Source of the DNA: Bacteroidaceae bacterium
Lineage (GTDB): Bacteria > Bacteroidota > Bacteroidia > Bacteroidales > Barnesiellaceae_A
Assembly: GCA_017532725.1 (NCBI GenBank)
Contig: JAFXIZ010000016.1
Span: forward strand, 43,317 to 107,316
Direction: 5' to 3'
Length of the DNA: 64,000 bases
The notes beneath the pieces are model-generated. The model was not told where the DNA came from and made no database searches. It worked only from the letters and a program-made list of their open reading frames with translations. This document shows, piece after piece, positions 26,280 through 45,927 of the stretch. Positions within the stretch are counted from its first letter, which is position 1, and every line of letters begins with the position of its first letter. Position numbers and translations under genes: made by a program.

Positions 26280-26286
26280 TGCTATT

Positions 26287-28889: not shown

Positions 28890-29000
28890 AGTATATCTTT
28901 AATTTTTGTTGTATTTTTCCAAGTTTTATATCTCTATTGTCACAGTATATGTGCAAGGTAAGAACCTAATTGTATAATTCGTACAAAGGTAGTGAAAGAT

Positions 29001-29040
29001 AAGGGAATAAAAAACAAACTTGTCTGTTTTTTATTCCCTT
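29001..29040 (-). terminator. 16-bp perfect hairpin downstream of the ydeI-like gene
   Basis: AAGGGAATAAAAAACA (29001-29016) pairs with TGTTTTTTATTCCCTT (29025-29040). It lies about 100 nt after the stop at 29138. The gltX promoter box (minus-strand TACCTTTG, 28984-28991) follows immediately. Confidence 0.5.
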
Positions 29041-29137
29041 GTGGATTATTGATGATGTTGGTTGGATGTTTTTGCTGTGTTATGAGAAATATTTACTTGG
29101 CTTACAATGGGTTTGTTTGTGGTGTTTGGTTGACCTT

Positions 29138-29479
29138 TTATTTTGCCTCGGAGAGTGCTTTGCGTCCAACTTCGGTCATCAATCCTCGTTGCTCAAGGCT
29201 TGCACAACGCTGTTTATTCAGTTCGGTCCAATGGCTGTTTTTGCGACGTGGCAATAGGCGTTGCGCAAGGCGACCATCGGGTAGGCGTTTCAAGGTTGAG
29301 TCTATCCACCCATAGCATAGGGCTTCCTCGACAATTTCAATGTAAGGTATGGTACCCTCGACGGGTTGTTTGCTGCGCGAGGTTATTACCCAACATACAC
29401 GCTCGGTAGGGTGATTTTCTTCGAGCCATTGCCTCAACTCGGCTCGCGTGGTGCAGTGTAGAAGATTTACAATATCCAT
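29138..29479 (-). CDS. YdeI/OmpD-associated family protein
   Basis: RAELRQWLEENH...CWVI...IPYIEIVEEALCYGWIDS...SHWTELNKQ matches my recollection of the YdeI-type (DUF1801-related) family. Confidence 0.55.
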   Translation of the reverse strand: MDIVNLLHCTTRAELRQWLEENHPTERVCWVITSRSKQPVEGTIPYIEIVEEALCYGWIDSTLKRLPDGRLAQRLLPRRKNSHWTELNKQRCASLEQRGLMTEVGRKALSEAK

Positions 29480-29482
29480 CGA

Positions 29483-29791
29483 TTACTTCTTTGATTTTTC
29501 TTCATCCAGCAACTTGCGCTTTTGTTCTATCATTTCGCCCTCGCGCATACCGTTGTAACCACCCAATGAGCCGTCGGCTGCCACTACGCGATGACAAGGT
29601 ACATCGGGCGCAAAAGGGTTGCGTTTGAGAGCCTGACCCACGGCTTGCGCACTGCCACACCCAATGCGCCGAGCCAACTCGCCGTATGTGATGGTAGTCC
29701 CTGCCGGCACATCCAGCAGAGCCAAATACACCCGTCGCTGAAACGACGTTATCTCTGCCGATTGCATAACCTTGTGGCGTATATTGTTCAT
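29483..29791 (-). CDS. ogt: methylated-DNA--protein-cysteine methyltransferase (MGMT family)
   Basis: The track start at 29812 is a TTG, so I trimmed to the ATG at 29791 (MNNIRHKVM...). Active-site motif VPCHRVV, then TYGELARRIG and AVGQALKRNP. Confidence 0.8.
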   Translation of the reverse strand: MNNIRHKVMQSAEITSFQRRVYLALLDVPAGTTITYGELARRIGCGSAQAVGQALKRNPFAPDVPCHRVVAADGSLGGYNGMREGEMIEQKRKLLDEEKSKK

Positions 29792-29798
29792 TTCGCCC

Positions 29799-30020
29799 TT
29801 ACTCTTTCTCAAGTTCTTCGAGGAGTTTGCGCAGTTCTTCGTCGGTTTGTGTAAGGCGTGTTTTGCAGAATTTCAGCAGGGCAAGCGATTGCTTGGTGTA
29901 GTCGCGTAGCAAGTCTATCTCGCAGTTGGGATTTTGCATTTGGGCTACTATCTCTTCAAGTTGTTGCATCGCTTGTGTGTAGGTGAGTTCTTGGGTTGTT
30001 TCGGGGGTGTTATTCTTCAT
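29799..30020 (-). CDS. xseB: exodeoxyribonuclease VII small subunit
   Basis: Trimmed to ATG at 30020 (MKNNTPETTQELTYTQAMQQLEEIVAQMQN...). Helical and 73 aa. It overlaps the xseA 3' end by 11 nt. Confidence 0.8.
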   Translation of the reverse strand: MKNNTPETTQELTYTQAMQQLEEIVAQMQNPNCEIDLLRDYTKQSLALLKFCKTRLTQTDEELRKLLEELEKE

Positions 30021-31344
30021 TGCTTTTTTGTTTTGTGGTTGTTGTAATGTGGGCTTGTGCCGTACCGTCGGCAAGTTGTATTTCGATGTTGCTGTAGGGT
30101 GACAGGCTGTCTATTGTTTTTACTACTTTATTGCCTTGCAGAATAAGACTGTATCCTCGCGACAGCACAGCGTCGGGCGATAGCAGTTGTACCGTGTGCG
30201 CAAGGTTGTCTATGTGTTGTTGCTCTTGGCGTAGCAGGGCAGTGGTGCGCTCGGGTATGAGGTGAGCAAGGAGCGATAGTCGTTGATGTTCGCGACTCAT
30301 TCTATCGGTTGTATTGCGCTCGATGTGGTGTGCAATGTTTTGTTGCTGCCACTTCTCCTTGTGCAGTCGTTGCGTTACAATGTACGGAATGTTGCCTGTG
30401 AGTTGTTGCAAGCGATTGTTCTCGGCCATAATGCGTCGGCTCACAATTTCGGTAATCACTTTGCGTGTGCTTTGTGCAGCGAGGTCGGCACGATGTAGTT
30501 GCTCGATAAGCCATTCGGCTGCCGCAGTGGGTGTTTTTACCCTTATGGCGGCGACGTAGTCGAGGATGGTTTCGTCGCGTTCGTGGCCTATTCCTACGAT
30601 AATGGGTAGGGGAAATTGTGCTACGTTGCCGGCAAGGTTGTAGGTGTCGAAACACGACAATTCCGATGTAGAGCCTCCACCTCGGATGATGACTACGCAA
30701 TCGAATAGGTCGATGTGGCAGTGAATGCGATTGAGTGCATCGATGACCGATGTTTCGGTGTTCTCGCCCTGCATAATGGCAGGAAACAATACGGGGTAGA
30801 ATTTATAGCCGTAGGGGTTGTTATGCAATTGCTCGCTGAAGTCGCCATATCCGGCGGCAGTGTGCGATGATATGACTGCAATGCGTTGGGGTAGTATGGG
30901 TAGGGGCAACTCCTTGTTGTCGTTTATTATGCCATCGGCTTCGAGTTGTGCCAATATCTCGGCGCGTCGGCGTGCAGCCTCGCCTATGGTGTAGGTGGGA
31001 TTGATGTCGTGTATGGTGAGGCTCATACCGTACAACTCGTGGTATGTTATCGATACCGAAACCAGCACTTGTATGCCGGCAGTAAATGTTTGCCCTGTCT
31101 CCTGCTCGAAGTAGGGGCGTAGCAGGTTGTAGGTATTGGCCCATATAATGGCGCGTTGGCGAGCCGTGGTGCGACCCTGATGGTCTTTTTCTATCAACTC
31201 CAAGTAGCAATGACCGTTGCGATTGGGGTGGCACTCGCTTATCTCGGCACAAACCCAATATTCGTGTGGCAACCTCTCTTCTATTGCCTCGCGAATGCTC
31301 ATATTCAACTCGGTGAGGGTGTATATGTGTTCTTGCTCGCTCAT
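30010..31344 (-). CDS. xseA: exodeoxyribonuclease VII large subunit
   Basis: OB-fold N-terminus (YWVCAEISE...NGHCYLELIEKD), then IAVISSHTAAGYGDF, IIRGGGS and IGHERDETI. Confidence 0.9.
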   Translation of the reverse strand: MSEQEHIYTLTELNMSIREAIEERLPHEYWVCAEISECHPNRNGHCYLELIEKDHQGRTTARQRAIIWANTYNLLRPYFEQETGQTFTAGIQVLVSVSITYHELYGMSLTIHDINPTYTIGEAARRRAEILAQLEADGIINDNKELPLPILPQRIAVISSHTAAGYGDFSEQLHNNPYGYKFYPVLFPAIMQGENTETSVIDALNRIHCHIDLFDCVVIIRGGGSTSELSCFDTYNLAGNVAQFPLPIIVGIGHERDETILDYVAAIRVKTPTAAAEWLIEQLHRADLAAQSTRKVITEIVSRRIMAENNRLQQLTGNIPYIVTQRLHKEKWQQQNIAHHIERNTTDRMSREHQRLSLLAHLIPERTTALLRQEQQHIDNLAHTVQLLSPDAVLSRGYSLILQGNKVVKTIDSLSPYSNIEIQLADGTAQAHITTTTKQKSNEE

Positions 31345-31346
31345 TC

Positions 31347-32954
31347 CTATCGCTTTATTTTTATTGCTTTATATTCGGTGTCACTCTGCCACACCACTAT
31401 GTATATACCTGCATCTATATCGGGCATATCTATCTCGGTTGTGCCTTGCTCGATGCTGCGTCGGGCAACGGTGCGACCTGTCGTATCGTATATGGTAAGG
31501 GTGGCTTGTCGTAAGGATTGGGGTAGATGTAACCTACCGTTGCTGTAGTGCAATGAGCATTGTGTCTTACCGTCTGTCGGCACACTGCTGTTGTTTCGGT
31601 ATATGGCATATATATCGGGTATCCCATAGCCACATAGGGCATCGGGGGTTTCGTACTGCGAGGCTCCACGTTGTATCTCCTCAATAAGCCGAGTTACCGA
31701 CCATTGTGGTTGCGACTGCCACAGGCAGGCTATGGCTCCACACATAATAGGTGCGGCGTATGATGTGCCCGATGTGCGCTTGACAGCATCACCGGCAGTA
31801 ATGGTGTTTACGTTGCTACCCATCGCTACGACATCGGGCTTGATGCGACCATCGGCTGTAGGGCCACAACTGCTGAAGGGGCTGTGGCTGCCGTCGTTTG
31901 TTACACTGCCTACGGTAATAACGCCCTCGGCATCTGACGGAACGGCTATTTTCTTCCATTCGTTTCGATATTCATTGCCGGCGGCCACCACTACCAACAA
32001 CCCTTTGTGATAAGCCATATTGGCTGCGCGTGATGAGAAGGCTGTTTGGCCGTCGAGGTTGTTGTGGGTATAGTTCATACCTTCATCATCGAAAGTATTG
32101 TATGCCAACGATGTGTTTACAATGTCGGCTCCAATGCTGTCGGCCAACTCCAACCCTGCTACCCAATAATCTTCCTCTATGGGGTATTCGCTATTGATAT
32201 CTTCGGTGACAATGAGTATATACTCGGCTTCGGGGGCTGTGCCTATGTAGTCGTTGGGCTTGTTGGCTGCCATACACGATAGCACTTCCGAGCCGTGTGT
32301 TTCGTTTCCGTAGGTCATTGCGTTATGAGGAAAATCGTACAGGAAAGTTATCTTCTCGTGGTTGTAGTATGCCGAATTTTTTACACCGTAGAAGCCTGCA
32401 TCAATAACGGCAATAGTCATACCTTCGCCTCTGTATCCCTCGTTGTGGAGCCGGTCGATATGTAGCATATCGGTCTGTTGCCACGCATCGCCGTATAGGG
32501 TGGCGTTGTCGGTTGCTGTTGTCTGATATTGAGTTGCTAACTCCCTCTCACGCTGTTGTTTGCTTTTAGCCGTAGGTGCTATTTCGTTTTTCCATACACA
32601 CTCGGTGTGGCTCACAAAGGGTAGGGCTGCAATATCGGCTACGACGGCAGTGTCATCGACAGCCACAACGACGGTATTCATCCAGCGTGAGGTGACAACC
32701 AATCGGCATCCCACAGCCTCGATCTGCTCAATGTATTGTTGGCACACCGGCAAGTCGCGCTCATCGATGGCATATCCTTGTCGGTTGCGTCGGTCGATGC
32801 ACGCTTGCGATAGAAAAGCCTCGGGTTGTGAGGCTGTATATTGGCTCGCATCCTTGTCGGTAAGCCATACGCGATATTTGTAGTCGTTGGCTCGGCTACA
32901 TATAAGGGTTGTTGCAATTGTCAGCAACAGCAGTATGGCTACAAGTCGTTTCAT
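31347..32954 (-). CDS. S8 family (subtilisin-like) serine peptidase with T9SS CTD
   Basis: Catalytic triad contexts AVIDAGF (Asp), HGSEVLS (His) and GTSYAAP (Ser). Signal peptide MKRLVAILLLLTIATTLICS. The C-terminus LTIYDTTGRTVARRSIEQGTTEIDMPDIDAGIYIVVWQSDTEYKAIKIKR is a T9SS CTD. Confidence 0.85.
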   Translation of the reverse strand: MKRLVAILLLLTIATTLICSRANDYKYRVWLTDKDASQYTASQPEAFLSQACIDRRNRQGYAIDERDLPVCQQYIEQIEAVGCRLVVTSRWMNTVVVAVDDTAVVADIAALPFVSHTECVWKNEIAPTAKSKQQRERELATQYQTTATDNATLYGDAWQQTDMLHIDRLHNEGYRGEGMTIAVIDAGFYGVKNSAYYNHEKITFLYDFPHNAMTYGNETHGSEVLSCMAANKPNDYIGTAPEAEYILIVTEDINSEYPIEEDYWVAGLELADSIGADIVNTSLAYNTFDDEGMNYTHNNLDGQTAFSSRAANMAYHKGLLVVVAAGNEYRNEWKKIAVPSDAEGVITVGSVTNDGSHSPFSSCGPTADGRIKPDVVAMGSNVNTITAGDAVKRTSGTSYAAPIMCGAIACLWQSQPQWSVTRLIEEIQRGASQYETPDALCGYGIPDIYAIYRNNSSVPTDGKTQCSLHYSNGRLHLPQSLRQATLTIYDTTGRTVARRSIEQGTTEIDMPDIDAGIYIVVWQSDTEYKAIKIKR

Positions 32955-34057
32955 TGTTGTTTGTAATTCTTCAGCAGTCGGGTGTCCTCAATAATACCAC
33001 CACCTACTACCACGTCGCCGTCGTATATAACGGCCGATTGTCCCGGTGTAAGGGCCGATACCGGTGAGGCAAAACGTACAATGGCATTGCCGTCGTCGAG
33101 TGTTTCGATGGATGCTTCTACGGCCTTGCTGCGATAGCGAATACGCACAGCAAGTTGTGACAGAGGTTGATATGAGGCATCGAATCGCACATTTGATATC
33201 AAGGCCGTCGATTGCAATAACTCATCGGCGTTGCCCAATCGTATGGTATTCTTGGCTGCGTTGATGCGAATGACGTATGCCGGATGTCCCAAAGCGATTT
33301 CCAATCCTTTGCGTTGTCCTATGGTGTAGAACGGGTAACCCTTGTGTTGTCCCAACTTGCGACCTTTCTCATCTACAAAAAATCCTCCACCTACTTGGCT
33401 GTCGAGGTTGGGTATCATTTCTCGCAAGAAATCGCGGTAGTCATCGGGAACAAAGCAAGCCTCCATACTCTCTTTTTTTTCGGCTTTCTGTGTGAAACCC
33501 TTTTGGCGAACATACTCTTTGATGTCTTGCTTGATAAGTCCCCCCAAGGGGAAGATTGTGCGAGAAAGTTGTTCTTCGGTAAGTCGCCACAAGAAGTACG
33601 ATTGGTCCTTCTTGTTGTCTATGCCACACGCCAGCATAGGCTTGCCGTTGTGCTCGATAATGCGTGCGTAGTGTCCTGTTGCCACTTTATCGCAATGTAG
33701 TTTGTCGGCTGCTTCAAGCAGATATTTCCACTTGAAAAAACGGTTGCACATTACGCAAGGGTTGGGGGTGCGTCCACGCATATACTCATCGATAAAGGCT
33801 TGTACCACTTCGGCACGAAATTCGTTGCGTATATCGAGCGTGTGGTGTTCTATGCCTAATTTTTCGGCCAATTCGCGTGCTTCGAGAATATGATTGGGCT
33901 CGACCTGCTCTGGGGTATTGAATTGTGAGGGAACGTCCCACATACGCAGGGTTAGTCCTACAACCTCGTAGCCCTCATCCTGTAGCATCATACATACGGC
34001 CGAACTATCCACGCCACCACTCATTCCTACCAAAACTCTTTTGTTCTGCATTGTCAT
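32951..34057 (-). CDS. mnmA: tRNA 2-thiouridine(34) synthase
   Basis: PP-loop VLVGMSGGVDSS, then NPCVMCN and GHYAR motifs. Confidence 0.95.
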   Translation of the reverse strand: MTMQNKRVLVGMSGGVDSSAVCMMLQDEGYEVVGLTLRMWDVPSQFNTPEQVEPNHILEARELAEKLGIEHHTLDIRNEFRAEVVQAFIDEYMRGRTPNPCVMCNRFFKWKYLLEAADKLHCDKVATGHYARIIEHNGKPMLACGIDNKKDQSYFLWRLTEEQLSRTIFPLGGLIKQDIKEYVRQKGFTQKAEKKESMEACFVPDDYRDFLREMIPNLDSQVGGGFFVDEKGRKLGQHKGYPFYTIGQRKGLEIALGHPAYVIRINAAKNTIRLGNADELLQSTALISNVRFDASYQPLSQLAVRIRYRSKAVEASIETLDDGNAIVRFASPVSALTPGQSAVIYDGDVVVGGGIIEDTRLLKNYKQQ

Positions 34058-34135: not shown

Positions 34136-35881
34136 TTATTCGATTACCTTGTATAAGGTTAAATGTGAATTATGAAATACCTCTTGGTAACTGTTCCTTT
34201 GCATAAATTCGAGTAGAATCTTGGCCTTCCCTTGCAATTCGGGGTGTTCCTGTGCATCGAGATATTGTGTCGATGATAGGTCTTTGTAGTAGAAATGAGG
34301 TATTGCTATGAGGGGTAATTCGCGTGAACTGTTTTCGGCTTCAAAAAGTTTTTTCTCAAACATTTTATTACCCCAGAATGTACTCCAAGGCGAGCCTAAA
34401 TAGGGCTGCATATTGGTGAGGTAGTGCAACATAGGTAGGTTGTCGAATACCAACAGATAGTTGCCTTGTGCGCGATGTTGTGTGGTGTGCGTTACTATGT
34501 CATCAATTATATTGGCGCGCTCTTGTGTGGTGAATGTTGTGGCTTGGTAGGCTTGTGCGCGATGTAGTTTTCCCAAGCGACTGCCATCGTCGAAATAGCA
34601 ATTGCTATGCAATGCTACAAATAGCAGAAATGCTGTACCTGCTATAATGCTCAATTGTCGGCTGGTGGGCTTGTCGGTGTGGATGTTGATACTGCGTTGA
34701 TACTCATCGTTGTACGATATGTTCCACTGAATAGGATATCGAAACATATTGATAAGCAGAGGCATACCCAGCCACATACAAGAGTAACATATATTGGCAT
34801 AGGAATCTCCACCTAATGGAATTACAATGAGCATTGTGAGTGCTGATAATCCTAATGTTAGGCGTTGGGTGTCTCTATGATGCATCAGTGTGTAGATGAT
34901 GCTTGCAGCCGTAACCCCTCCCCACATAGCGTAGAAGTTGCGCGACAGCAGCGAGTAGATAAAAGCAATACTTATTATACCCACTATCAAGCCTATACCT
35001 TTTATTTTGATGTGTCTGATTGAAATGATATATAGCAGGCACACGATAAAGACTTTAATAGATACACTGATTATGTTCTTGTATGTCCCAACGTAGTTGC
35101 CCAACAGGTGCGTGATGCTGTGTGTATCGGAAGAGTCGCCACCCATAACAAATAGCGAGAGTATTGCCGATACGAAAGGTGTTATATGTCCCAACAGATA
35201 CATTATTGTCAGTACAACAACCTTTCCAATAAAGGCACCTCCAATGATGCGCAGTATGTTGTGTCCTGCCTTACTATAATTGCCTGTGTGAATACTCTCT
35301 ATGATAGGAATGAATATGAGTATCCATAGCGTGATGTTGGGCGTGCGAGTAAATGTATTAAGTGCAAGAAATAAGCCCATACTCCACCAAGCCCATCGTT
35401 TACCATTCATTCCTTGTGTCAACGCATATACGGTGAGAAGGAAAAGTAGTGCAGTGAGGCAATCGTGGTTGAAGTAGTGCAGGCACAACCCCGGATACAA
35501 AACGCAGGCAAGTGTACTCAGTACAATGGTTGATGTCTTAAAGTAGGGCTTTAGAATGGCAAACGTGGTAAGTACAATTCCCCCCGATGTTAAGGCAAAG
35601 AGTATGCGATATGCGTAGTTACCCCAATTGCCAAAGAGTACCTCCCATATACCTCCTATTAAGCCCGAGAGGTAGTACAGGAACAGATATTCCACATCCG
35701 ATGGGTGTGTAAAGATGTTTTGGTAGAAAGTTAGTGAGAAACCTTCATCGGCAAAGTCAAATCCCTGTAGTGAGATGAGAACGTAGTAAATAACTGCAAA
35801 AAGTGTCATACCCCACATACATCTGCGAGGATGCCTATCGAGTGTGGCGAGTATGCCGGATATGCCTTGCAGGAGTTTCAT
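34136..35881 (-). CDS. polytopic membrane protein, GT-C (ArnT/PMT-like) glycosyltransferase fold suspected
   Basis: 581 aa with roughly a dozen hydrophobic segments, then a ~170-aa soluble C-terminal domain. An acidic motif (FDFADEG) sits in the first predicted loop, as in GT-C enzymes. The assignment comes from architecture only. Confidence 0.4.
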   Translation of the reverse strand: MKLLQGISGILATLDRHPRRCMWGMTLFAVIYYVLISLQGFDFADEGFSLTFYQNIFTHPSDVEYLFLYYLSGLIGGIWEVLFGNWGNYAYRILFALTSGGIVLTTFAILKPYFKTSTIVLSTLACVLYPGLCLHYFNHDCLTALLFLLTVYALTQGMNGKRWAWWSMGLFLALNTFTRTPNITLWILIFIPIIESIHTGNYSKAGHNILRIIGGAFIGKVVVLTIMYLLGHITPFVSAILSLFVMGGDSSDTHSITHLLGNYVGTYKNIISVSIKVFIVCLLYIISIRHIKIKGIGLIVGIISIAFIYSLLSRNFYAMWGGVTAASIIYTLMHHRDTQRLTLGLSALTMLIVIPLGGDSYANICYSCMWLGMPLLINMFRYPIQWNISYNDEYQRSINIHTDKPTSRQLSIIAGTAFLLFVALHSNCYFDDGSRLGKLHRAQAYQATTFTTQERANIIDDIVTHTTQHRAQGNYLLVFDNLPMLHYLTNMQPYLGSPWSTFWGNKMFEKKLFEAENSSRELPLIAIPHFYYKDLSSTQYLDAQEHPELQGKAKILLEFMQRNSYQEVFHNSHLTLYKVIE

Positions 35882-35889
35882 AGTGAAAA

Positions 35890-36366
35890 TTATTTTTCTA
35901 TAAGAACGACAGCGTATGCCGAAATGCCCTCTTCGCGACCTGTAAAGCCCAATTTCTCGGTAGTAGTGGCTTTTATGGAAATATCCTCAATATCTATACC
36001 CATACAAGCAGCCATCGCTTCTTTCATAGCCGGTATATGAGGATTGAGTTTGGGTCGTTCGGCGCATATTGTCATATCGGCATTGCCTATGCGATAACCT
36101 TTCTCGGCGAGTAATTCGGTGACTTTACGCAGTAATATTTTGCTATCTATGCCGGCATATTCACCTGCCGTATCGGGAAAGTGATACCCTATATCGCGCA
36201 TATTGGCTGCTCCTAACAGTGCATCGCACAGGGCGTGTATTGCAACATCGGCATCGGAGTGCCCTAACAGTCCGGCTGTGTGTTCTATGCGAACACCGCC
36301 TAACCAAAGGTCGCGACCTTCGACAAGACGGTGTACATCATATCCCATTCCTACTCTTATTTTCAT
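35890..36366 (-). CDS. ispF: 2-C-methyl-D-erythritol 2,4-cyclodiphosphate synthase
   Basis: RVGMGYDVHRL...GHSDADV...HALCDALLGA is the canonical IspF pattern. Confidence 0.95.
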   Translation of the reverse strand: MKIRVGMGYDVHRLVEGRDLWLGGVRIEHTAGLLGHSDADVAIHALCDALLGAANMRDIGYHFPDTAGEYAGIDSKILLRKVTELLAEKGYRIGNADMTICAERPKLNPHIPAMKEAMAACMGIDIEDISIKATTTEKLGFTGREEGISAYAVVLIEK

Positions 36367-36377
36367 AGGATTGTTTT

Positions 36378-37595
36378 TTATTTTATCAGATTCTTGATTC
36401 CTTCAAGGTCAAACGCCAAAGTGAAACGTAATGTTTGGTCGAGAGGGCTTGATGCTGCTGTGGCGAGCAGGTATGCTGCATCGACTTGAATAATGCTGTA
36501 GGCAAAACTTGCACCGAATGCAAAGAATTGACGGTTACCTTTGTACTCATCTTCCCAATAATATCCGGCACGAAGTGAGAACATACGGTTGTATGAGTAT
36601 TCAAGACCTACCGAGAAGTTTATCTCGCGCATCTCCTCTTCAAATCCACCCGGAGCATCGTAGAACGACTTGGCGATACCCTCAAACGGCGACATATTGT
36701 AGTACTCCTCTCGCGCTGCATTGTAAGCATCGGTATTGATAGTTCCATCCTCATTCTTGTATTGATACTCTTGAGGCATTGTGGGTACAAGCATCTTGTT
36801 GGCATCGACGTTGATAGAGATTGTATTCTTGTCGGCTATGGGGAACAGGAATGTTGTACCAATCTTCAAGTTGGTGGGCAAGAATGCAGGCTGATTGCCG
36901 TTGTCGTATGCCAATTTTGAACCGATGTTCGATATGTTCATACCCCACGACCATTGGCACTCGTTGCGTGCAATGATGGGGTAGAATGTATAGTACCACG
37001 AAATGTCGGCTCCAAAGGCCGATGCGCCTTTTACGCTACCTGTTGCGCTACCACTTTCATCGTATTGGAAACCGAGATCGGAGTAGATGTAGCGCATCAC
37101 AACACCCATTGAGAAGTTTTCCGACAACTTGCGCGAGTAACCCAAGTCCACTGCCATTTCGAAGGGGTTGATTGAGTTTACGGCATCGCCATTCTGGTTG
37201 GTGAGTGTTATACTACCCAATGAGAAGTAACGCAGCGAGAGGCTCATCGCTTGGGGCTTGTTGGGGCCAAACTTGAGGTAACCACTGAGGTTGAGCAGGT
37301 AGATGTCATTGACCAATTTGCTCAACCAAGGTGTGTATGACAGGCCGATACCGGCATCGCTGAATGCAAAGGCATATTTTGAAGCATTCCAGAATTGCGA
37401 GTTTACATCGGGGTCGGTTGCAGCACCTATGTCACCCATACCGGCACCTCGCGCATCGGGGGCTATGGTGAGTGATGTTGCACCGGTGTTGACAGGGTTG
37501 AATTGTTTAATAACTTCTCCTTGTCCGTATGCTTGAAACGCTGTTATACAAGCAAATAATAGAGTTACAATTGATATAATGCTATTTTTATTCAT
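36378..37595 (-). CDS. porV: T9SS outer-membrane channel/shuttle protein PorV (LptO)
   Basis: Signal peptide followed by TGATSLTIAPDARGAGMGDIGAATDPDVNSQFWNASKYAF, the conserved PorV N-terminal block. It is a FadL-like 14-strand barrel-sized protein (405 aa) lying directly downstream of porU, as in other T9SS loci. Confidence 0.8.
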   Translation of the reverse strand: MNKNSIISIVTLLFACITAFQAYGQGEVIKQFNPVNTGATSLTIAPDARGAGMGDIGAATDPDVNSQFWNASKYAFAFSDAGIGLSYTPWLSKLVNDIYLLNLSGYLKFGPNKPQAMSLSLRYFSLGSITLTNQNGDAVNSINPFEMAVDLGYSRKLSENFSMGVVMRYIYSDLGFQYDESGSATGSVKGASAFGADISWYYTFYPIIARNECQWSWGMNISNIGSKLAYDNGNQPAFLPTNLKIGTTFLFPIADKNTISINVDANKMLVPTMPQEYQYKNEDGTINTDAYNAAREEYYNMSPFEGIAKSFYDAPGGFEEEMREINFSVGLEYSYNRMFSLRAGYYWEDEYKGNRQFFAFGASFAYSIIQVDAAYLLATAASSPLDQTLRFTLAFDLEGIKNLIK

Positions 37596-37652: not shown

Positions 37653-40600
37653 TTATTGCCTTATGATAACTATTTTTTTGCCGTTGGTCACAAATTTGCT
37701 CTCTCCAATTGATATGTAGGCGTAACAAACATACTCGCCGGGTTGGGCTGTTCCGTCGTACGTTGACAAGTCCCATACTACTTGAGTCGCGCTTGTGCGA
37801 CTTGTCCACACCTCATTTCCTGTAGCACTATCGGCAATAACATATTGTATTGACATCTCGTTATTGACAACACCGTCGATGCTGATGGTGGCTTGTGTCA
37901 TAACGGGGTCTTCGGCAATGTTTATGGTATATTGTTGTGTGGCATCGGCCTCAACGGTAAATGTTGTAGTTGCTTCGCTCGAATTTCCGGCATTATCGAA
38001 TACTTTAACGGTAATGCTATGAACACCTACTGACAGATTGTTAAGCGCGTAATCTATGCTACCACTGCCACAACCCATTGAGGGTGAGTAGTGTCTTGAT
38101 AGGTCGTTGCAAATGATATTGCCATCTAACCACAATGTCATAGCCTTACCCATCGACAACTCATTATTGGTGATTCCACTCTCCTCATCGCTGACGGTGC
38201 AGTGGAATGTGGTGTTGCTGTTTACAGCATCGCCTTCAACAAAATTCTCATCTCCTACCCATATATCCGAGATAGTGGGGGCTGTAATGTCGGGCTCCGA
38301 TTCGGCAATACCATTTATAAACATATTCTTATTATAACCTTTGGCCTCTATATCTTTGGTCGTATTATAGGCATAAAGGCTGATAAAACCTGTTGTGTCG
38401 CTTTGCAAGCATTGTACAGGAAGACGGAATGTGGCTGTAAACTTACCGTTAACGATTGTGTCGGCGGCTGTTACCAACTTGTATTTGTATAGATTGAATT
38501 TTTCGGTCAATGTAGTTGTACCCGATGATGATGACACACTTTCGGTTGCTACCTCTCCGGTGAAGGCATCATATACCTCGTAACACAATGTTCCGTTAAA
38601 GTCGGTAGCCTCTTTGCCTGCTGTGTCGTATATGCTACCTGTAATGGTTACCTCGCTGTTGGCAGGGGTTGCGATTTTGCTACCTTGACTTACAGTGGTG
38701 CCATTGATGGTTTCAACCTTGATGTCGTAGGTGGGTAGAGGAATGGCAAGAGCCGGATCGCCAATCAAGCAATATTTCAGTTTGTTTGGGTCGCTTGTAA
38801 TCTTGCCGTTTTTGTCGTATTGCAGCGTGGCTTTAGCGCGTCGCATCACGTCGCCAAGTCTTATCTTGCCATCGGCCGAGGGAATGAAAAACTCGCGTAA
38901 GAGTTCACGATTTATATCCTCATTACCATTGGTATATACGGTGCGTGTTGTGGTATATAGGGCTATAAAACCACCTCTGTCGTTCTTAAACAGTGCTTCG
39001 CCTACCGAGTTTTCATCTTTGTCGAAGGGGCATACGTCGCAAGTGGCAGTGATGAAAATGGGCCAAATGCTATTGGTCATCTCCTTGGCGTGTGTGATAT
39101 TGATGAGGTTGGTACCTATCGACAGGTGACCTGCGTGTCCCATATAATCGTATATCATAGCACCCTCCTCAAGATCTTGGAATATTTGTTCTTGTGAGCC
39201 TATGAATTTTTCTTCATTAGTTGAGTTGTATGCGCTGAGATATACTTTATCAACTATTATATGTTCTTGGTCTGCCTCTACGGTCAGTTTCGATACGTTG
39301 TTCATTTGGCGAATGTGCAAGTTGTTGTCGCCATTAAGACCTATAAAGCAAGCCTTGTTTTTCCACAAGTTGTTGATAGGTTTCTGATTGATGTATGTTG
39401 TCAACTTCTTATATACCTTTTGCGACTCCTCAAGGTTGCGTATGGGCATACGACCTATGCTTATCTGCATTGCCTCGGATGTGATATCTACGCCCGAATT
39501 GTCCTCCAAAAATCCGAAGTAGTCGTCGGTGACATACGAGTAGCGTTGGTCGGTGCTGCTTTCCGATTGGTAAGTTACCAACAGGATGTTATCCTCTTGG
39601 TGTAACTTGTCGGCTATGGCACGGTTGTTATATGAGCCACGACCGTAGAAGAGCAGGTAGCGAGGCGCATTACCGTAACCGGCCTGTGCGCGGTCGTAGA
39701 ACATCTTCATCATACGGCGTATGGCTGTTGCATCGGGTGTTCCTCCCGAGAACTCGTTGAAGATGGCAAGTTGGTCGCATACCAATACCTTCATATTGTC
39801 CATATCGCGGTGCAATTGTGCTATGCGCTCGGCTTCTTTGATGAAGTATCGGGTTGTCACGATAACCATATCGGGTATATCGTCTATTCCGTGAATATTT
39901 TGTGACTCTACGTTGCACACAAATTGAGGGGTGTTTAATGTGTCTTGCACGTCAAATGCAATGTATTCGTTGTAACTGAGTTGGTTGGCGTCGGGGGTAA
40001 AGGCTACCTTGCCTTCGACAACCGTAGTGGGTCGGATATATGGTTTGTTGACGTCCGATATATTCCATACTCTGATGTCCTTGCTGTTTCTATCCTTGAT
40101 GTCGATGGCAAAGTAGTTGCCGTCGATGGTTGTGCGACGGAAGTTCATTTGAGCATCGGTAAGTTCCAGACGACGTGTGTAGAATAAGCGAATATAGTCG
40201 AGGTGGAATTTGTTGAGTGTACCTGAGCCATTTGCGCTGAAGTTGAGCGAGAAATCTTCGGCTGCATCAAGGGTATAGTAGCGTTTAGCCTCCTTGATGT
40301 ATGTGTAAGAGTCGGATGCTCCCACAGTAACGTAAGGAGTGAGGGCTGTGCCATTGTATTGCGCAATGAGAGTGTATGTTGAGGTACTGTTGGCACCCAT
40401 CGAAATATATACTGTCATCTTGTCGCCTGTAATACCGGGGGCTTGCAGGTCGATAGTGCTATTGCTGATAAGATCCTCGCCCAAATAGAGGCGGCCGGTT
40501 TGTCCTAAGCATACTATATCTTGTTCGTGTAGGCGATATTCGTTGAAGGTAGTCATCGGTGTGCCTTCGGCTGCGTTGCCATCTACTATTTCAATCGCTT

Positions 40601-41051
40601 GTTGAGGGTGGCTCTCGGTAAGGAAGTAGTAGGTGGTTGTCGAATAATAGTTATTGGTGTGTGTCCAATAAGTTGTTCCCGATGTTCTTGTCCATTGTGT
40701 GCTACCCGAAGCGTAGAAATATAGGTCGCCATTCTCAACGTGAACAGGTATTGCTTGCAAGTCGTCGGTGTCGCTGTTGCTGAAGGTTTCGGGCAGCATA
40801 TAACCGTTTTGTCCGTATAGACTTACATTCGATGCGTCGGAGAAACCCCAACTTTGCAATGTTGCGGCATCAATGCGATGAATACCTTGTTCCGTAGTCG
40901 CTATCTTAACCCATTTGCCTTGGCTTAATACCGACTGCTCGGCATAGTGTGATGCGGGAAGTGCCGTTGTGTGCAGGTTGAAACATAAGGCTATTACTAT
41001 AGTAGTAACAAATTGTGATGTCGTGTGTAGTATGCTTATGAATTTTTTCAT
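37653..41051 (-). CDS. porU: T9SS sortase PorU (C25 peptidase family)
   Basis: 1132 aa. The N-terminus HYAEQSVLSQGKWVKIATTEQGIHRIDAATLQSWGF is typical of PorU. Gingipain-like catalytic contexts are YDYMGHAGHLS (His) and FITATCDVCPFD (Cys). It has a C-terminal beta-sandwich/CTD and is adjacent to porV. Confidence 0.8.
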   Translation of the reverse strand: MKKFISILHTTSQFVTTIVIALCFNLHTTALPASHYAEQSVLSQGKWVKIATTEQGIHRIDAATLQSWGFSDASNVSLYGQNGYMLPETFSNSDTDDLQAIPVHVENGDLYFYASGSTQWTRTSGTTYWTHTNNYYSTTTYYFLTESHPQQAIEIVDGNAAEGTPMTTFNEYRLHEQDIVCLGQTGRLYLGEDLISNSTIDLQAPGITGDKMTVYISMGANSTSTYTLIAQYNGTALTPYVTVGASDSYTYIKEAKRYYTLDAAEDFSLNFSANGSGTLNKFHLDYIRLFYTRRLELTDAQMNFRRTTIDGNYFAIDIKDRNSKDIRVWNISDVNKPYIRPTTVVEGKVAFTPDANQLSYNEYIAFDVQDTLNTPQFVCNVESQNIHGIDDIPDMVIVTTRYFIKEAERIAQLHRDMDNMKVLVCDQLAIFNEFSGGTPDATAIRRMMKMFYDRAQAGYGNAPRYLLFYGRGSYNNRAIADKLHQEDNILLVTYQSESSTDQRYSYVTDDYFGFLEDNSGVDITSEAMQISIGRMPIRNLEESQKVYKKLTTYINQKPINNLWKNKACFIGLNGDNNLHIRQMNNVSKLTVEADQEHIIVDKVYLSAYNSTNEEKFIGSQEQIFQDLEEGAMIYDYMGHAGHLSIGTNLINITHAKEMTNSIWPIFITATCDVCPFDKDENSVGEALFKNDRGGFIALYTTTRTVYTNGNEDINRELLREFFIPSADGKIRLGDVMRRAKATLQYDKNGKITSDPNKLKYCLIGDPALAIPLPTYDIKVETINGTTVSQGSKIATPANSEVTITGSIYDTAGKEATDFNGTLCYEVYDAFTGEVATESVSSSSGTTTLTEKFNLYKYKLVTAADTIVNGKFTATFRLPVQCLQSDTTGFISLYAYNTTKDIEAKGYNKNMFINGIAESEPDITAPTISDIWVGDENFVEGDAVNSNTTFHCTVSDEESGITNNELSMGKAMTLWLDGNIICNDLSRHYSPSMGCGSGSIDYALNNLSVGVHSITVKVFDNAGNSSEATTTFTVEADATQQYTINIAEDPVMTQATISIDGVVNNEMSIQYVIADSATGNEVWTSRTSATQVVWDLSTYDGTAQPGEYVCYAYISIGESKFVTNGKKIVIIRQ

Positions 41052-41072
41052 AACTGTATGGCGTGGTTTATA

Positions 41073-41687
41073 TTATTTTATGTTGAATTCGAGTACTTTA
41101 CGATTGTCGATATAGCCGGTAACGTGGTCGTTGATAGCTACGGGACCAACACCTGCCGGTGTGCCGGTGTATAAGATGTCGCCCATCTTGAGTGTAAAGA
41201 AGCGACTGACGTACGATATGATATTGTCGATGCTGTGTATCATATCGCGAGTGTTACCTGCTTGTACGGTTGTTCCGTTTAGTTGCAGCGAGAAATCTAC
41301 TCCTGTTTCCAATGGCAACTCCTCTTTGGCTACCCACGAGCCTATGGCTGCCGAGCCGTCAAATCCTTTCGATAGTTCCCAAGGTGCGCCGGCTGCTCGC
41401 AGTTGCTGTTGCAGGTCGCGTGCAGTGAAATCGACTCCTACGGTGAGCGCGTCGTAATATCGGTGAGCAAATCGTGGGGCTACATTCTTGCCTACGCGGC
41501 ATATACGCACAACTACTTCGGCCTCATATTCGATGCGATTGCTGTGAGGTGGCAGAAACAACGGCTTGCCATCCTTGAGCAAGGCTGTCTCGGGCTTGAG
41601 GAATACAACGGGGTATTCGTTCTCCTCTGGTCTGTTCATCTCGGCGTTGTGCGCTCGGTAGTTCCAACCTACTGCTATTATCTTCAT
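41073..41687 (-). CDS. fumarylacetoacetate hydrolase (FAH) family protein
   Basis: Trimmed to ATG at 41687 (MKIIAVGWNYRAHN...). It has the EAEVVVRI, FTARDLQ, PWELSKGFDGSA and GDILYTGTPAGVGPV motifs of the FAH fold. Confidence 0.8.
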   Translation of the reverse strand: MKIIAVGWNYRAHNAEMNRPEENEYPVVFLKPETALLKDGKPLFLPPHSNRIEYEAEVVVRICRVGKNVAPRFAHRYYDALTVGVDFTARDLQQQLRAAGAPWELSKGFDGSAAIGSWVAKEELPLETGVDFSLQLNGTTVQAGNTRDMIHSIDNIISYVSRFFTLKMGDILYTGTPAGVGPVAINDHVTGYIDNRKVLEFNIK

Positions 41688-41700
41688 TTCGGTTGCGTGG

Positions 41701-42345
41701 TTATTCAATAGCACCCATACGGTTGAACATTACAGCCAAATGGGCGTATATTGAGGTGTTCTGTATTACTATATTTTGTGGCACGCGCAGGCGATAGGGC
41801 GTAAAATTCCATATCGCGCGTATGCCGTTTTGTACCATATTGTCGGTTGCTTCCTGAGCCTTATCGACGGGTACGGTGAGGATACCTATGTGTGCATCCA
41901 ATTCGGCTCGCTTTTGTGCAAAATCGTTGACGTTGAATATAGGTATTCCGTTGATGTTGTCGTGGGGCAAGGGACGTATGTCAAATCCTGCAACAATCTC
42001 CAATCCGTATTGCACCAATCCCGAGTCGTGCATCAATGCTGCTCCCAAGCGTCCCACTCCATATACTATGGCGCGATGTTGAGAGGTAAAGCCCAAGAAT
42101 TGCTCCAGCACGTATACAAGCGAGTTGACCTCATAGCCTACACGAGTCTTTCCCGATATGTTGATGAAAGAGAGGTCTTTGGCTATTTGTGAGGCATCGA
42201 CGTTGATGGCCTTGGCTATTTGGGTCGATGATATATACTCGATACCTTGAGCCTGAACCAACTTGACATACGCAAGATACCAAGGAAGCCTATGCAATGT
42301 AGGTTCCGGCAATTTGGTGATTGTATTTGTGTTGGTTGCGTTCAT
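41701..42345 (-). CDS. rex: redox-sensing transcriptional repressor Rex
   Basis: Winged-helix N-domain (RLPWYLAYVKLVQAQGIEYISSTQIAKAINVDASQIAKDLS) and an NADH-binding Rossmann fold (VYGVGRLGAAL). Confidence 0.85.
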   Translation of the reverse strand: MNATNTNTITKLPEPTLHRLPWYLAYVKLVQAQGIEYISSTQIAKAINVDASQIAKDLSFINISGKTRVGYEVNSLVYVLEQFLGFTSQHRAIVYGVGRLGAALMHDSGLVQYGLEIVAGFDIRPLPHDNINGIPIFNVNDFAQKRAELDAHIGILTVPVDKAQEATDNMVQNGIRAIWNFTPYRLRVPQNIVIQNTSIYAHLAVMFNRMGAIE

Positions 42346-42372
42346 ATTGGTTGGGCAATACTATTCAAGATG

Positions 42373-42380
42373 CAAAGGTA
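42373..42380 (-). promoter_or_regulatory. -7 promoter box TACCTTTG for rex
   Basis: Plus strand CAAAGGTA, 27 nt upstream of the rex ATG and immediately after the terminator of the upstream gene. Confidence 0.45.
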
Positions 42381-42383
42381 ATA

Positions 42384-42420
42384 AATTGTCCCGTTTTTTA
42401 TGCAAAAAAACGAGACAATT
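42384..42420 (-). terminator. intrinsic terminator after the porU paralog
   Basis: The minus strand reads AATTGTCTCGTTTTTT-tgcat-AAAAAACGGGACAATT, a 16-bp stem with one mismatch, about 70 nt after the stop at 42490. Confidence 0.6.
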
Positions 42421-42489
42421 CTTTGTATCTGTTATTGTTAAGTACTTGGTAATAGAACGATGCTCCCAATGGGCTGCAATGGGTAGTAA

Positions 42490-45400
42490 CTATCGTGATG
42501 GGGCTACAAGCAGTTTTTGGGTTTTGGTGGCTATGTGCGTATTGTCGGTCGAGATGGTGGCTCGGTACAAATATACGCCTCCGGGTACTTTCGCACCACT
42601 GCTTGTTGTTAAGTTCCACGTTATGGGGAAGGTCTTGAACTTGTCGGAAGTTCCTTTCTTTTCGCTTTGCCATACGGGCATACCCATCAGGTTATATACC
42701 GAAATGGTTACTGTTACAATGCCGTCGGGTCGGTCGTGTTCGAGATAGAAATTGGTCGATGTACGTGCCGGGTTTTGGTCGGCATATACTTTGTATATCT
42801 CGGGTGTCAATCCCTTCTGAACGGTAAATTCTATCGTTACTGTTGATGAATTGCCTTCGTTGTCCCATACCCTGAAGGATAGGGTGTGGTAGCCCTCGCT
42901 CAAGTTGCTCAACGGGTAGCATATAGTACCCGATGTGCCTGTAGTGTCGGGCGAATAGTAACTGCTTATATCCGAGTAACTTGTCTGTCCGTCGAGGTTG
43001 ACGGTCATACAGTGTCCGATACCCGATGTCGAGAGGTTGATGCCCGATGGGTCGTTGAAGGCGGCGAATAGTACCGGCGATTCGTTGACAATATCTCCGT
43101 CGTTAAAGTCGGATGTATTCAGGTACATATAGGTTATATCGGGCCCTATGGTGTCGGTTTCTGTTACTTCAGCCATACCTCCGATTCTTATTGCCGAGTT
43201 GGCTCCACTTGCCTCTATTGCATCCCAACTGTGGGCGTAGAACAGCATCAGTCCGTTTTTATTGGAGAAACTTGTCTCCTTGGGCATACGGAATGATAGG
43301 CTGAATTTTCCCCCTCTTACGTTGGCTTTGCCCGAGAATAGTTTGTTGTTTCGCTCGGCAAACTCTACTTCTACACCTCCGTCATATCCGTGCGACTTGG
43401 TTGTTTGTTCGGCATCGTAAAGGTTGATATATACCTCTCCGTCAAAGTCGGTGGCCTCTTTGCCTGCCGGTGTGAGGATGCATCCCTCCAAGAATACCTC
43501 CGAGCGTGCTTCGAGGGTTATGTCTTTGTTGGCATCGGTGTTGTTGATTCGGGTTGCCACAACTTGGTGCGACGGGTATCCGAGTCGCATCGCGGGGTCA
43601 CCCAGCAGGGTATATACCAACTTATTGCTATCAGGGGCATATTTGTTGGGCGATGTAAGGTATTGCGATGTGAGGTAATTCTTTCCTTTTTTTATTATGT
43701 CGCCAAGTCGATAATGCTCGTTGTTCTCATCGCGTTCAAACAGGTAGTCGCCTATTGCGTTATTAAGACGACCGTTCTCGTTTATCCACGCTACGCGAGT
43801 GGATGATAAGAGTGCTATTGCGCCACCAAATTCGTTGAGGAAGAAGTATTCGCCACCCGATATCTCCTCCGAGTCGTAGCGACTGAAGTCGCACGTTGCC
43901 GTAAACATAAAGGGCAGATTCTTGATGTATAGCGACTTGATATCGTTGATGTTGAGCAAGTCCTCGGCAGTCCAACTTACGGGGTTGGCGTGACCTATGT
44001 AATCGAGGACTAATTGCCCCTCTTCCAACAACTGCATCATACGCTTTTTGGCATCGGGGAATGTGCGTCCTGTCGATGTGTTTACCTCGTTGTAGGCGTC
44101 GATATATACTTTGTTAATCAGTAGGTCGGGCTTGTCCTCAATCCAATATGATGCCACGCTCTCGGCTTGTCGCATATGTGTGCCCGAGTTGCCGTCATCG
44201 GCTACGATAATGGCTTGGTTGCGCCACGCTCCGTAGTGGGGCTTGTTTACATAGTTGTATAGTTTCTCTACAACAATATTGGCCTCTTCGCTACTCTTTA
44301 CAGGGAAGCGACCTACGCCTATGCTCATCAGGTTGGTGGCATTCCTTGAGTCGGCATCATCCTCGAGATATGTGAAAAAGTCGTCGCAAGTGTAGGAGTA
44401 AGTTTCATTCTCGCTGCGAGGGCTTTGGTAGGTGAGCAGGGTGGGATAATCGCACGTTTGTATATCGCTCGATATCTTGCGATTGTCATACAAGCCTCTG
44501 CCAAACAATAACAAATATTTAACTTGACGTCCCGAGGGGTTGGCCTTGGAACGGTCGTAAAACATCTTCATCAGTCGGCGATATGCCACTCCATCGGGAG
44601 TACCTGAAGAAAATTCGTTGAAAACCAAGTCGTGCTTGATAACGTGTACCTTCATCGAATCGACACTCTCGTGCAAGGCTGCAACTTGTTGTGCTTGATT
44701 GAGATATGCACCCGGAGCCAATATCACCATATCGGGTATCTCCAATGCGTGAAGATCTTGATTATTGATATTGCCTACGCCGGTGGGAGTGGGGAATGTT
44801 GCCGAAGGATTGAATGCAATATATTCCCTATTGTGTTGTGCCGGGCTGAATAATGCTTGCTCGCCCGACAGAGTGTATTCAACGTGCAGTGGAGTGTGTG
44901 CTTTTGTTATGTCCCAAATGATGCATTTGCTGTTCATCCCGGATACGGCAAGACTATTGCCATACTCCATACTGTGTACCCTGAATTTTACCGAGCCGTT
45001 GTACAATTGCAACTTGCGTTTGTACGAAAGCCTGATAAAGTCGAGTCGGGCATTGATAACGTTGCCTCCTGATTGGAATGTGATGGAAAAGTCCTCCGTT
45101 CCACCGCGAGGAGTAACGGTGGTCTTGGGGGTAATGTATTTCATAAACTCATAAGTGTTGTCGGTATTGGCTTTTATCTGCCAATTGCTTCCACTTGATA
45201 TGAGTGAGCCGTTATGATATACCTTCAGTAATCCGGTGCTGCCCAATATCTTGGCTCCGAATGCAATTTCTACAAGCATCGGTGTATGAGTGTCGATGCC
45301 CGGTATGTTGAACGAGAATTTTTGTGTCTGTGTATAGCGAAAATCCTCACCGAAAAACATTTGCCCGGTCTTACTCATTGAGGCCGATTCTACTTCGTGC

Positions 45401-45927
45401 AGAGAATATCCGTCAAATATATCTATCACTGTTCCGTCGGGTGTGGCAAGTCTGGCTGCTTCGGTGGCAACGGCACTGTCGCTATTCTCGGTAATAAAGT
45501 AGTAACCTGCTGTTGCGTAGGTGTTTTGTCGTTGCTTCATCCTGCCATCGGATTTGTCGTACCACCATTTTACGGTGCCTTGTGCGTAGAAGAGAATACG
45601 GTTGTTGTTATGCACAACGGGTATCTGTGGCAAGTCATCCACATCGTTGGTGTTATAAGTTTCGGGTAAGAGGTTGCCTCCGTAACCGTATATGTGTACG
45701 CGCGACGGGTCGCTGAAGCCCCAATCCTTCAGTTGCGAATAAGATATTTCGTGAATGCCACTTTGGGTAACACTTACCTTGTACCACTTACCACTGCTCA
45801 ATACCGAGTGCTCGGCGTAATGCTCGGTGGGCAGTGCGTGGGCAATAAAAGTGTTGCCTATTGCTATACTTATAACCCCTATTAAGGTTACAAGCCTATA
45901 TATGTCTGTAATTCGTGTCAATTTCAT
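42490..45927 (-). CDS. second PorU-like C25 family peptidase (paralog of 37653-41051)
   Basis: 1145 aa and colinear with PorU. Paired segments: HYAEHSVLSSGKWYKVSVTQSGIHEISYSQLKDWGF versus HYAEQSVLSQGKWVKIATTEQGIHRIDAATLQSWGF; FNEFSSGTPDGVAYRRLMKMFYDR versus FNEFSGGTPDATAIRRMMKMFYDR. Catalytic contexts are retained: LDYIGHANPVSW (His) and FMFTATCDFSRYD (Cys). Confidence 0.75.
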   Translation of the reverse strand: MKLTRITDIYRLVTLIGVISIAIGNTFIAHALPTEHYAEHSVLSSGKWYKVSVTQSGIHEISYSQLKDWGFSDPSRVHIYGYGGNLLPETYNTNDVDDLPQIPVVHNNNRILFYAQGTVKWWYDKSDGRMKQRQNTYATAGYYFITENSDSAVATEAARLATPDGTVIDIFDGYSLHEVESASMSKTGQMFFGEDFRYTQTQKFSFNIPGIDTHTPMLVEIAFGAKILGSTGLLKVYHNGSLISSGSNWQIKANTDNTYEFMKYITPKTTVTPRGGTEDFSITFQSGGNVINARLDFIRLSYKRKLQLYNGSVKFRVHSMEYGNSLAVSGMNSKCIIWDITKAHTPLHVEYTLSGEQALFSPAQHNREYIAFNPSATFPTPTGVGNINNQDLHALEIPDMVILAPGAYLNQAQQVAALHESVDSMKVHVIKHDLVFNEFSSGTPDGVAYRRLMKMFYDRSKANPSGRQVKYLLLFGRGLYDNRKISSDIQTCDYPTLLTYQSPRSENETYSYTCDDFFTYLEDDADSRNATNLMSIGVGRFPVKSSEEANIVVEKLYNYVNKPHYGAWRNQAIIVADDGNSGTHMRQAESVASYWIEDKPDLLINKVYIDAYNEVNTSTGRTFPDAKKRMMQLLEEGQLVLDYIGHANPVSWTAEDLLNINDIKSLYIKNLPFMFTATCDFSRYDSEEISGGEYFFLNEFGGAIALLSSTRVAWINENGRLNNAIGDYLFERDENNEHYRLGDIIKKGKNYLTSQYLTSPNKYAPDSNKLVYTLLGDPAMRLGYPSHQVVATRINNTDANKDITLEARSEVFLEGCILTPAGKEATDFDGEVYINLYDAEQTTKSHGYDGGVEVEFAERNNKLFSGKANVRGGKFSLSFRMPKETSFSNKNGLMLFYAHSWDAIEASGANSAIRIGGMAEVTETDTIGPDITYMYLNTSDFNDGDIVNESPVLFAAFNDPSGINLSTSGIGHCMTVNLDGQTSYSDISSYYSPDTTGTSGTICYPLSNLSEGYHTLSFRVWDNEGNSSTVTIEFTVQKGLTPEIYKVYADQNPARTSTNFYLEHDRPDGIVTVTISVYNLMGMPVWQSEKKGTSDKFKTFPITWNLTTSSGAKVPGGVYLYRATISTDNTHIATKTQKLLVAPSR

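Follow-up and report, generated by a model that had tools for sequence, protein, structure and literature searches.

Two PorU-type sortases, one canonical and one diverged, in the type IX secretion loci of Barnesiella, Muribaculaceae and related gut Bacteroidales

The DNA analyzed here, referred to as the window, is a 64,000-nucleotide stretch of contig JAFXIZ010000016.1 (assembly GCA_017532725.1) from a Bacteroidaceae bacterium placed by GTDB in Barnesiellaceae_A. It encodes two type IX secretion system (T9SS) sortases, PorU_A (1132 aa), which lies next to porV, and PorU_B (1145 aa), which lies upstream of rex; their open reading frames (ORFs), both on the minus strand, are located in Table 1. 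As the first-pass annotation of this DNA had proposed, each is a full-length C25 protein of the PorU type whose catalytic dyad is intact. That annotation treated the upstream copy without porV as "the paralog", but comparison of the sequences reverses the assignment: the porV-linked PorU_A is the diverged copy, and PorU_B the canonical one, with its ancestral features all kept. A pair of PorU proteins is standard in Barnesiella, Muribaculaceae and their relatives, and is not peculiar to this genome.

In a full-length BLASTP alignment PorU_A and PorU_B share 408 identities in 1153 positions (35%), with 53% positives and an E value of 0. The 40-55% identity first estimated by eye is accurate for the conserved blocks on which it was based (HYAE.SVLS.GKW, FNEFS.GTPD...RR.MKMFYDR, Y.GHA and TATCD, all of which are present) and too high for the proteins as a whole. 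Peptidase_C25 (PF01364) is complete in both, with E values of 2.8e-83 in PorU_A and 5.8e-89 in PorU_B, and the NCBIfam model NF033707, "T9SS sortase PorU", a curated equivalog with a cut-off of 420 bits, gives 751.7 bits for PorU_A and 1020.4 bits for PorU_B, each of which covers model positions 1-1094 of 1095. Scores on the PorU2 model NF052324 were 87.3 and 104.9 bits, respectively, both under its cut-off of 450 bits. The Porphyromonas gingivalis PorU structure (PDB 6za2) is matched end to end by phmmer, at E 1.6e-120 for PorU_A and 3.3e-171 for PorU_B. Counted along these alignments, the equivalents of P. gingivalis His657 and Cys690 are H639 and C671 in PorU_A and H646 and C679 in PorU_B; loss of the catalytic His or Cys from one copy was looked for, and the residues are present in both, in columns that are invariant among the aligned PorU homologs (62 of 62). 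Each protein starts with a hydrophobic segment resembling a signal peptide, and its multidomain architecture is complete. The 6za2 fold was assigned to PorU_B by sequence comparison alone and to PorU_A from an AlphaFold2 model (predicted local distance difference test score 71, predicted template modeling score 0.52), for which 6za2 was the best Foldseek match (E 3.8e-65 over about 1175 alignment columns) and gingipain RgpB the next structural match after PorU.

Identity between the two paralogs is 32% in the N-terminal domains, 38% in the catalytic domain, 35% in the post-catalytic Ig-like region and 20% in the C-terminal domain (CTD). Proteins of the A type (PorU_A and its orthologs) have lost 12 residues that B-type proteins and single-copy PorUs conserve, 10 of them in the C-terminal third, and the B type has lost none of the residues conserved in A-type and single-copy PorUs. 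The PorU_B CTD is 42% identical to the CTDs of Coprobacter and Parabacteroides and 60% identical to that of the B-type protein of Barnesiella intestinihominis; over the single-copy PorUs, CTD identity ranges from 28 to 42% for PorU_B and from 16 to 25% for PorU_A. The last 200 aa of PorU_B match the C-terminus of 6za2 (E 1.3e-27), and its last 110 aa match NF033707 (3.5e-21), with weak matches to TIGR04183 and CHU_C. Searched alone, the last 200 aa of PorU_A gave no match, and its last 110 aa gave none at E <= 1. The H-[ND]-R-P motif, kept from Chitinophagaceae to the B-type proteins, is missing from every A-type CTD; each of these CTDs also carries a deletion of 4-7 residues ahead of the W-[DN]-L strand (7 aa in PorU_A) and shows E-[DE]-P at the site where other PorUs have N-P. 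Identification of this deletion with the PorU/PorZ-specific L-beta5-beta6 hairpin (PMC11285876) was considered and not adopted, the strand register being unconfirmed.

Profile comparison still relates the two tails to each other: by hhalign the A and B tail profiles are homologous with 99.6% probability, and PorU-tail profiles score the A-type tails at 16-63 bits, as against 109-143 bits for single-copy tails. A beta-sandwich is predicted at residues 1042-1129 of the PorU_A model. We read the PorU_A tail as a diverged PorU tail and not as a cargo tail.

Both genes are under strong purifying selection, and neither is decaying. Ratios of nonsynonymous to synonymous substitution rates (dN/dS), calculated by the Nei-Gojobori method, were 0.085 for PorU_A and 0.062 for PorU_B against a conspecific contig (L050, 99% identical and reached via homology search; an exact-sequence look-up of the window's PorU_A returned no record), and 0.10 and 0.07, respectively, against the relative L001. 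In comparisons with L001 and with the more distant species used, dN of PorU_A was 1.2-1.4 times that of PorU_B, and the path length from the node joining the two types in the phylogeny described below is about 0.83 for PorU_A and about 0.52 for PorU_B. After the duplication PorU_A has evolved about 1.2-1.6 times faster than PorU_B.

Genomes with a single porU indicate which copy kept the original place. The order is SUI1, then FAA-porU-porV-ispF in Coprobacter (FAA, fumarylacetoacetate-hydrolase-family gene), rex-FAA-porU followed further on by porV-ispF in Parabacteroides merdae, and porU-porV-ispF in Chitinophagaceae. The single-copy order is thus (rex-)FAA-porU-porV-ispF, and PorU_A therefore occupies the ancestral position; PorU_B is the copy placed upstream of rex. 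In a neighbor-joining tree (62 sequences, 1076 alignment columns, 100 bootstrap replicates) the B-type clade had support of 100, the A-type clade 98 and the two together 87, with Coprobacter, Parabacteroides and the outgroups falling outside; within the A-type clade, the Barnesiellaceae sequences were supported at 96 and the Muribaculaceae-like sequences at 100. A tree of the N-terminal region alone resolved neither paralog clade. Since the extra copy lies directly upstream of rex in all families, and the A-type CTDs share derived features, one old duplication is favored, although not proven. The pair pre-dates at least the diversification of Barnesiellaceae, and is probably older than the split between Barnesiellaceae and Muribaculaceae.

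Relatives of the locus, compared as segments of about 20 kb, carry parallel series of orthologs on the same contigs, with A-type proteins 52-99% identical to PorU_A and B-type proteins 66-99% identical to PorU_B. A scan of GTDB species representatives returned 12 A-type loci, from gut metagenome-assembled genomes (MAGs) labeled Barnesiella sp., Porphyromonadaceae or "Bacteroidaceae". In 10 of these 12 species-level genomes porU_B is found close upstream of (rex-)FAA-porU_A, and porV-ispF comes next wherever the contig extends; among the 10, L011 is without rex, and the contig of L012 stops within porU_A. Different genes stand upstream of the rex/FAA-porU_A block in L002 and L004 (1-10000 in each), and in L045 (8001-11450) porU_B has kept UvrD-SUI1 as a neighbor, with unrelated genes after it instead of rex. 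Because of these three arrangements we regard porU_A and porU_B as separable by rearrangement. Among close relatives the rearrangement breakpoint recurs in the spacer between porU_B and rex.

The sister lineage with the same gene order includes RefSeq proteins of B. intestinihominis, WP_279132303.1 (A type) and WP_302279116.1 (B type), both named "type IX secretion system sortase PorU" by NCBI. Over 1500 blocks in the assembly collection contain a protein identical to this B-type one, and the gene for the 1136-aa A-type protein adjoins porV. Two abundant gut lineages (L051 and L052, from clusters of 7505 and 3831 member sequences) have a B-type gene ahead of rex-FAA-A, and their downstream copies keep GH and the catalytic Cys. 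A Muribaculaceae-like contig (L049, 3733-16190) has three PorU genes, in the order c1-GH25-c2-rex-FAA-c3-porV-ispF: c1 and c2, which flank the GH25 lysozyme-like gene, are both of the B type and 73% identical, and c3, beside porV, is of the A type. Among the relatives of c3, whose annotations point to Muribaculaceae and Sodaliphilus MAGs, are several further same-contig pairs, such as P0350/P0353, P0352/P0361 and P0367/P0391. Duplication of sortase genes has thus gone on in the Muribaculaceae-like family. In a census of A-type proteins with a 125-column CTD profile against 1.84 billion representatives, matches were swamped by giant repeat proteins, the first 35 or so columns of the profile being an Ig-like repeat. 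The first-pass annotation had allowed that two copies might be the norm of this clade for a reason already known. They are the norm, in the clade and beyond it, but no published explanation was found: literature searches turned up no report noting or explaining a duplicated PorU, and a survey of S24-7 genomes recorded PorU only as present.

The genes of the locus follow one another on the minus strand in the order porU_B, a 144-bp spacer, rex, FAA, porU_A, porV, ispF (11 bp after porV) and orf581, with the rex and FAA ORFs overlapping by 14 bp and with SUI1 and a UvrD-like helicase gene divergent, upstream of porU_B (Table 1). As first noted, porV follows only PorU_A; PorU_B is about 4.9 kb upstream of it, probably in a separate unit. 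GC content is even across the locus.

Table 1. Sortase locus features and T9SS cargo genes in the window, with strand and supporting evidence.
Feature	Position	Strand	Evidence
porU_B, canonical-type PorU sortase, upstream copy, probably its own transcription unit	42490..45927	-	NF033707, 6za2
Terminator-like hairpin 3' of porU_B, 17-bp stem, 5-nt loop	42383..42421	-	Hairpin scan
TACCTTTG, matching the Bacteroidetes -7 consensus TAnnTTTG, 35 nt 5' of the rex ATG	42373..42380	-	
rex, redox-sensing repressor	41701..42345	-	Put_DNA-bind_N + CoA_binding
FAA gene, 21 bp 5' of porU_A	41073..41714	-	PF01557, E 2.8e-48
porU_A, diverged PorU paralog, ancestral porV-adjacent position	37653..41051	-	NF033707, 6za2
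porV, outer-membrane shuttle/anchor barrel, 57 bp 3' of porU_A	36378..37595	-	NF033710, 480 bits (cut-off 250); PF19572, E 6.7e-66
ispF	35890..36366	-	PF02542, E 2.9e-71
orf581, polytopic membrane protein, 8 bp 3' of ispF	34136..35881	-	Many hydrophobic segments in translation
Type A CTD protein	4565-5419	-	
Type A CTD protein	9920-12304	+	
Type A CTD protein	15321-17690	+	
Type A CTD protein (weak)	17720-20524	+	
Type A CTD protein	31347-32954	-	
Type A CTD protein	58009-60807	-	

It was first proposed that porU_B has its own terminator, followed by a rex promoter, and that the two sortases are regulated separately; the pieces of this arrangement were found, and porU_B and the rex-headed block are probably separate transcription units, although transcription itself we infer. 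TAnnTTTG is the -7 promoter consensus of Bacteroidetes (Bacteroides), and every related locus with a short spacer (13 of 13) has the motif, 30-44 nt upstream of rex. The 17-bp hairpin is kept in the conspecific contig, and the same spacer in related loci mostly holds other strong hairpins; because it has no clear U-tract, we only infer that it acts as a terminator. Taken together, the hits of the terminator scan were at the level of chance (13 found, 10.9 expected), with this hairpin alone standing out, and a sigma-70 promoter scan (34 found, 25.8 expected from shuffles) is uninformative for Bacteroidetes. The first gene of a rex-FAA-porU_A-porV-ispF operon is probably rex. Separate promoters would let the ratio of PorU_A to PorU_B be regulated.

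At the other end, orf581 is probably co-transcribed with porU_A-porV-ispF, since it starts so close behind ispF, and it may, in this clade only, be the gene that ends the operon. It is found in L002-L011 at 53-63% identity, with dN/dS about 0.2, and is absent at the B. intestinihominis locus. Searches of Pfam and NCBIfam gave no family match for it; that it is a membrane glycosyltransferase-like protein is speculation. The position of ispF beside porV is conserved from Chitinophagaceae to Bacteroidales (synteny in L013-L039). The porU(-porV) cluster is headed by rex in several families of Bacteroidales, single-copy Parabacteroides among them (the window, L048, L040, L049, L051 and L052), a position which hints that expression of the attachment complex may follow redox state. 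Relative to the conspecific contig, synonymous divergence is 2-3 times higher in porU_B (0.19) and porV (0.17) than in porU_A, rex, FAA and ispF (0.07-0.09), an excess that suggests recombination or allele exchange specific to the surface-exposed porU_B and porV.

At least five proteins in the window have type A T9SS sorting domains (Table 1), including a choice-of-anchor-J/CARDB protein, a protein with an N-terminus like that of a T9SS-dependent surface endonuclease, an S8 peptidase with conserved synteny near the sortase locus, and an alpha-amylase encoded beside SusE/SusF-like genes. No type B CTD was found at cut-off within the 64 kb. Against each of the three PorU-tail profiles, the tails of the cargo proteins score 0-12 bits. 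On the type A sorting-domain model the PorU_B tail reaches 21 bits, under the cut-off of 23, and the PorU_A tail has no TIGR04183 or PF18962 match at E <= 1. The S8 peptidase gene belongs to a downstream minus-strand block (25032-34057; MnmA - S8 peptidase - XseA - XseB - ... - GltX - 361-aa protein - KdtA) that is the same as at the B. intestinihominis locus, and in related loci the 361-aa protein is labeled Lipid_A_deac. This agreement favors Barnesiellaceae as the family of the organism, an uncultured gut bacterium.

The explanation we lean toward, with moderate confidence, is that PorU_A and PorU_B are two non-redundant, active sortases that differ mainly in docking or partner and work in two kinds of attachment complex. 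In P. gingivalis the CTD of PorU is retained and holds the sortase on PorV (PMC10202324), and two distinct attachment complexes appear likeliest because the divergence described above is centered on this tethering module and not on the catalytic core. Both proteins are predicted to be active surface CTD peptidases/transpeptidases; a PorU sortase removes the CTDs of cargo, passes the cargo on to a glycan of the surface and resides in a complex with PorV, PorZ and PorQ. On this view PorU_B would act as the canonical enzyme. PorU_A, sharing a transcript with porV, would dock in another way or on another partner, and would serve a subset of the cargo or give it another fate, for instance linkage to a different glycan acceptor, or release in place of anchoring. 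The two ideas raised by the first-pass annotation, cargo classes with an enzyme of their own and differing fates at anchoring, may plausibly apply. Pairing of barrels with particular CTD proteins is known for the PorP/SprF-like and PorV/PorQ families (PMC10202324), and linking sugars differ among species, with the use of different sugars an open question (PMC11969387).

Some points weigh against this account of an old pair with divided docking. With the CTD columns removed from the alignment, support drops to 68% for A-type monophyly and 67% for the A and B types together, with the B type at 97%; the phylogeny is by neighbor joining only, and long-branch effects are possible. The location of porU_B away from the rex operon in L002, L004 and L045 means that linkage is not obligatory. 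The two proteins may also differ in chemistry or specificity.

A different role for the second copy would be regulatory, with PorU_A and PorU_B forming a heterodimer in one complex and one modulating the other. P. gingivalis PorU offers the precedent, as it crystallizes in the form of a latent dimer, with the active site of one monomer blocked by a hairpin from the other (PDB 6za2 title; PMC10202324), and the idea extends this homodimer latency to a pair whose members co-occur strictly in many lineages. We consider it doubtful, however: a purely regulatory subunit would not need the catalytic residues that are invariant in both proteins, and each gene has a promoter of its own and, in some genomes, a locus of its own. 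Simple redundancy, in which equivalent sortases are kept for more or differently timed expression and their divergence is neutral, would agree with the shared equivalog model, architecture and dyad, with the separate promoters, and with the extra, 73%-identical tandem copies of L049. Yet redundant copies are usually lost, and this pair has been kept in at least two families at just about 35% identity, with divergence that is strongly asymmetric and domain-specific and with dN/dS of 0.06-0.10 on both genes, which argues for distinct constrained functions and makes redundancy unlikely.

It was also suggested at first that one copy had been recruited as a cargo-like protease, that is, a surface C25 enzyme exported by the T9SS and working outside the attachment complex. 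PorU does share the gingipain (C25) fold, as the RgpB match illustrates, and cargo with type A CTDs is plentiful in the window. Neither PorU tail resembles the cargo CTDs of this genome, though, and the tail of PorU_A, for which the sorting-domain models found no match, reads as a diverged PorU CTD; the whole PorU-specific architecture of about 1100 aa is kept in both proteins, and porU_A is packed tightly against porV, so that we regard recruitment of this kind as quite improbable. An assembly or binning artifact that joined the PorU genes of two organisms is scarcely credible, given the same arrangement on dozens of independent contigs from different studies, the RefSeq proteins of B. intestinihominis and the uniform GC content.

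A broader version of the two-complex explanation can be put forward only tentatively, and we hold it to be rather unlikely as it stands: that Barnesiellaceae, Muribaculaceae and related dominant gut Bacteroidales have two T9SS attachment machines, one with a canonical PorU and one with an ancient, docking-remodeled paralog co-expressed with PorV for separate cargo or a separate fate. What makes PorU release one cargo and anchor another is recognized as an open question (PMC10202324), and two machines, if they exist, would answer it. Models of the T9SS have been built on species with one PorU. Duplication of the sortase, under selection in dominant families of the mouse and human gut, amounts to a natural experiment, and the pair is open to testing, as B. 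intestinihominis can be grown in culture and cultured Muribaculaceae exist. The two genes are not new in themselves, because they are already annotated as PorU in public genomes. New are the distinction between a canonical PorU and a CTD-remodeled, porV-linked paralog, which annotation pipelines mask by naming both genes alike, and its breadth across major gut families.

Compared with P. gingivalis PorU (PG0026), both proteins of the window have the same multidomain architecture, C25 domain and His/Cys dyad, and each shares one further feature with it, PorU_A the position directly upstream of porV and PorU_B the CTD; the CTD and preceding domains of PorU_A are unrecognizable when searched alone. 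P. gingivalis, Flavobacterium johnsoniae and the single-copy relatives have one porU, whereas this genome has two that are 35% identical. A close parallel is the pair of B. intestinihominis, with the same order (UvrD-SUI1, then B-rex-FAA-A-porV-ispF) and the same asymmetry between paralogs, although identity to the window's proteins is only 47% for its B-type and 36% for its A-type protein, and orf581 follows ispF only in the window's clade. PorU2 (NF052324), with PorV2 (NF052325), is likewise a second PorU-like C25 protein in Bacteroidota, but PorU2/PorV2 is a different family, and the window's PorV scores 21 bits on the PorV2 model. Other components of the T9SS have also been duplicated and specialized, among them GldJ/GldK, GldN/GldO, the PorP/SprF families and PorV/PorQ. 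Those are structural or docking components, whereas here it is the catalytic sortase itself that is duplicated.

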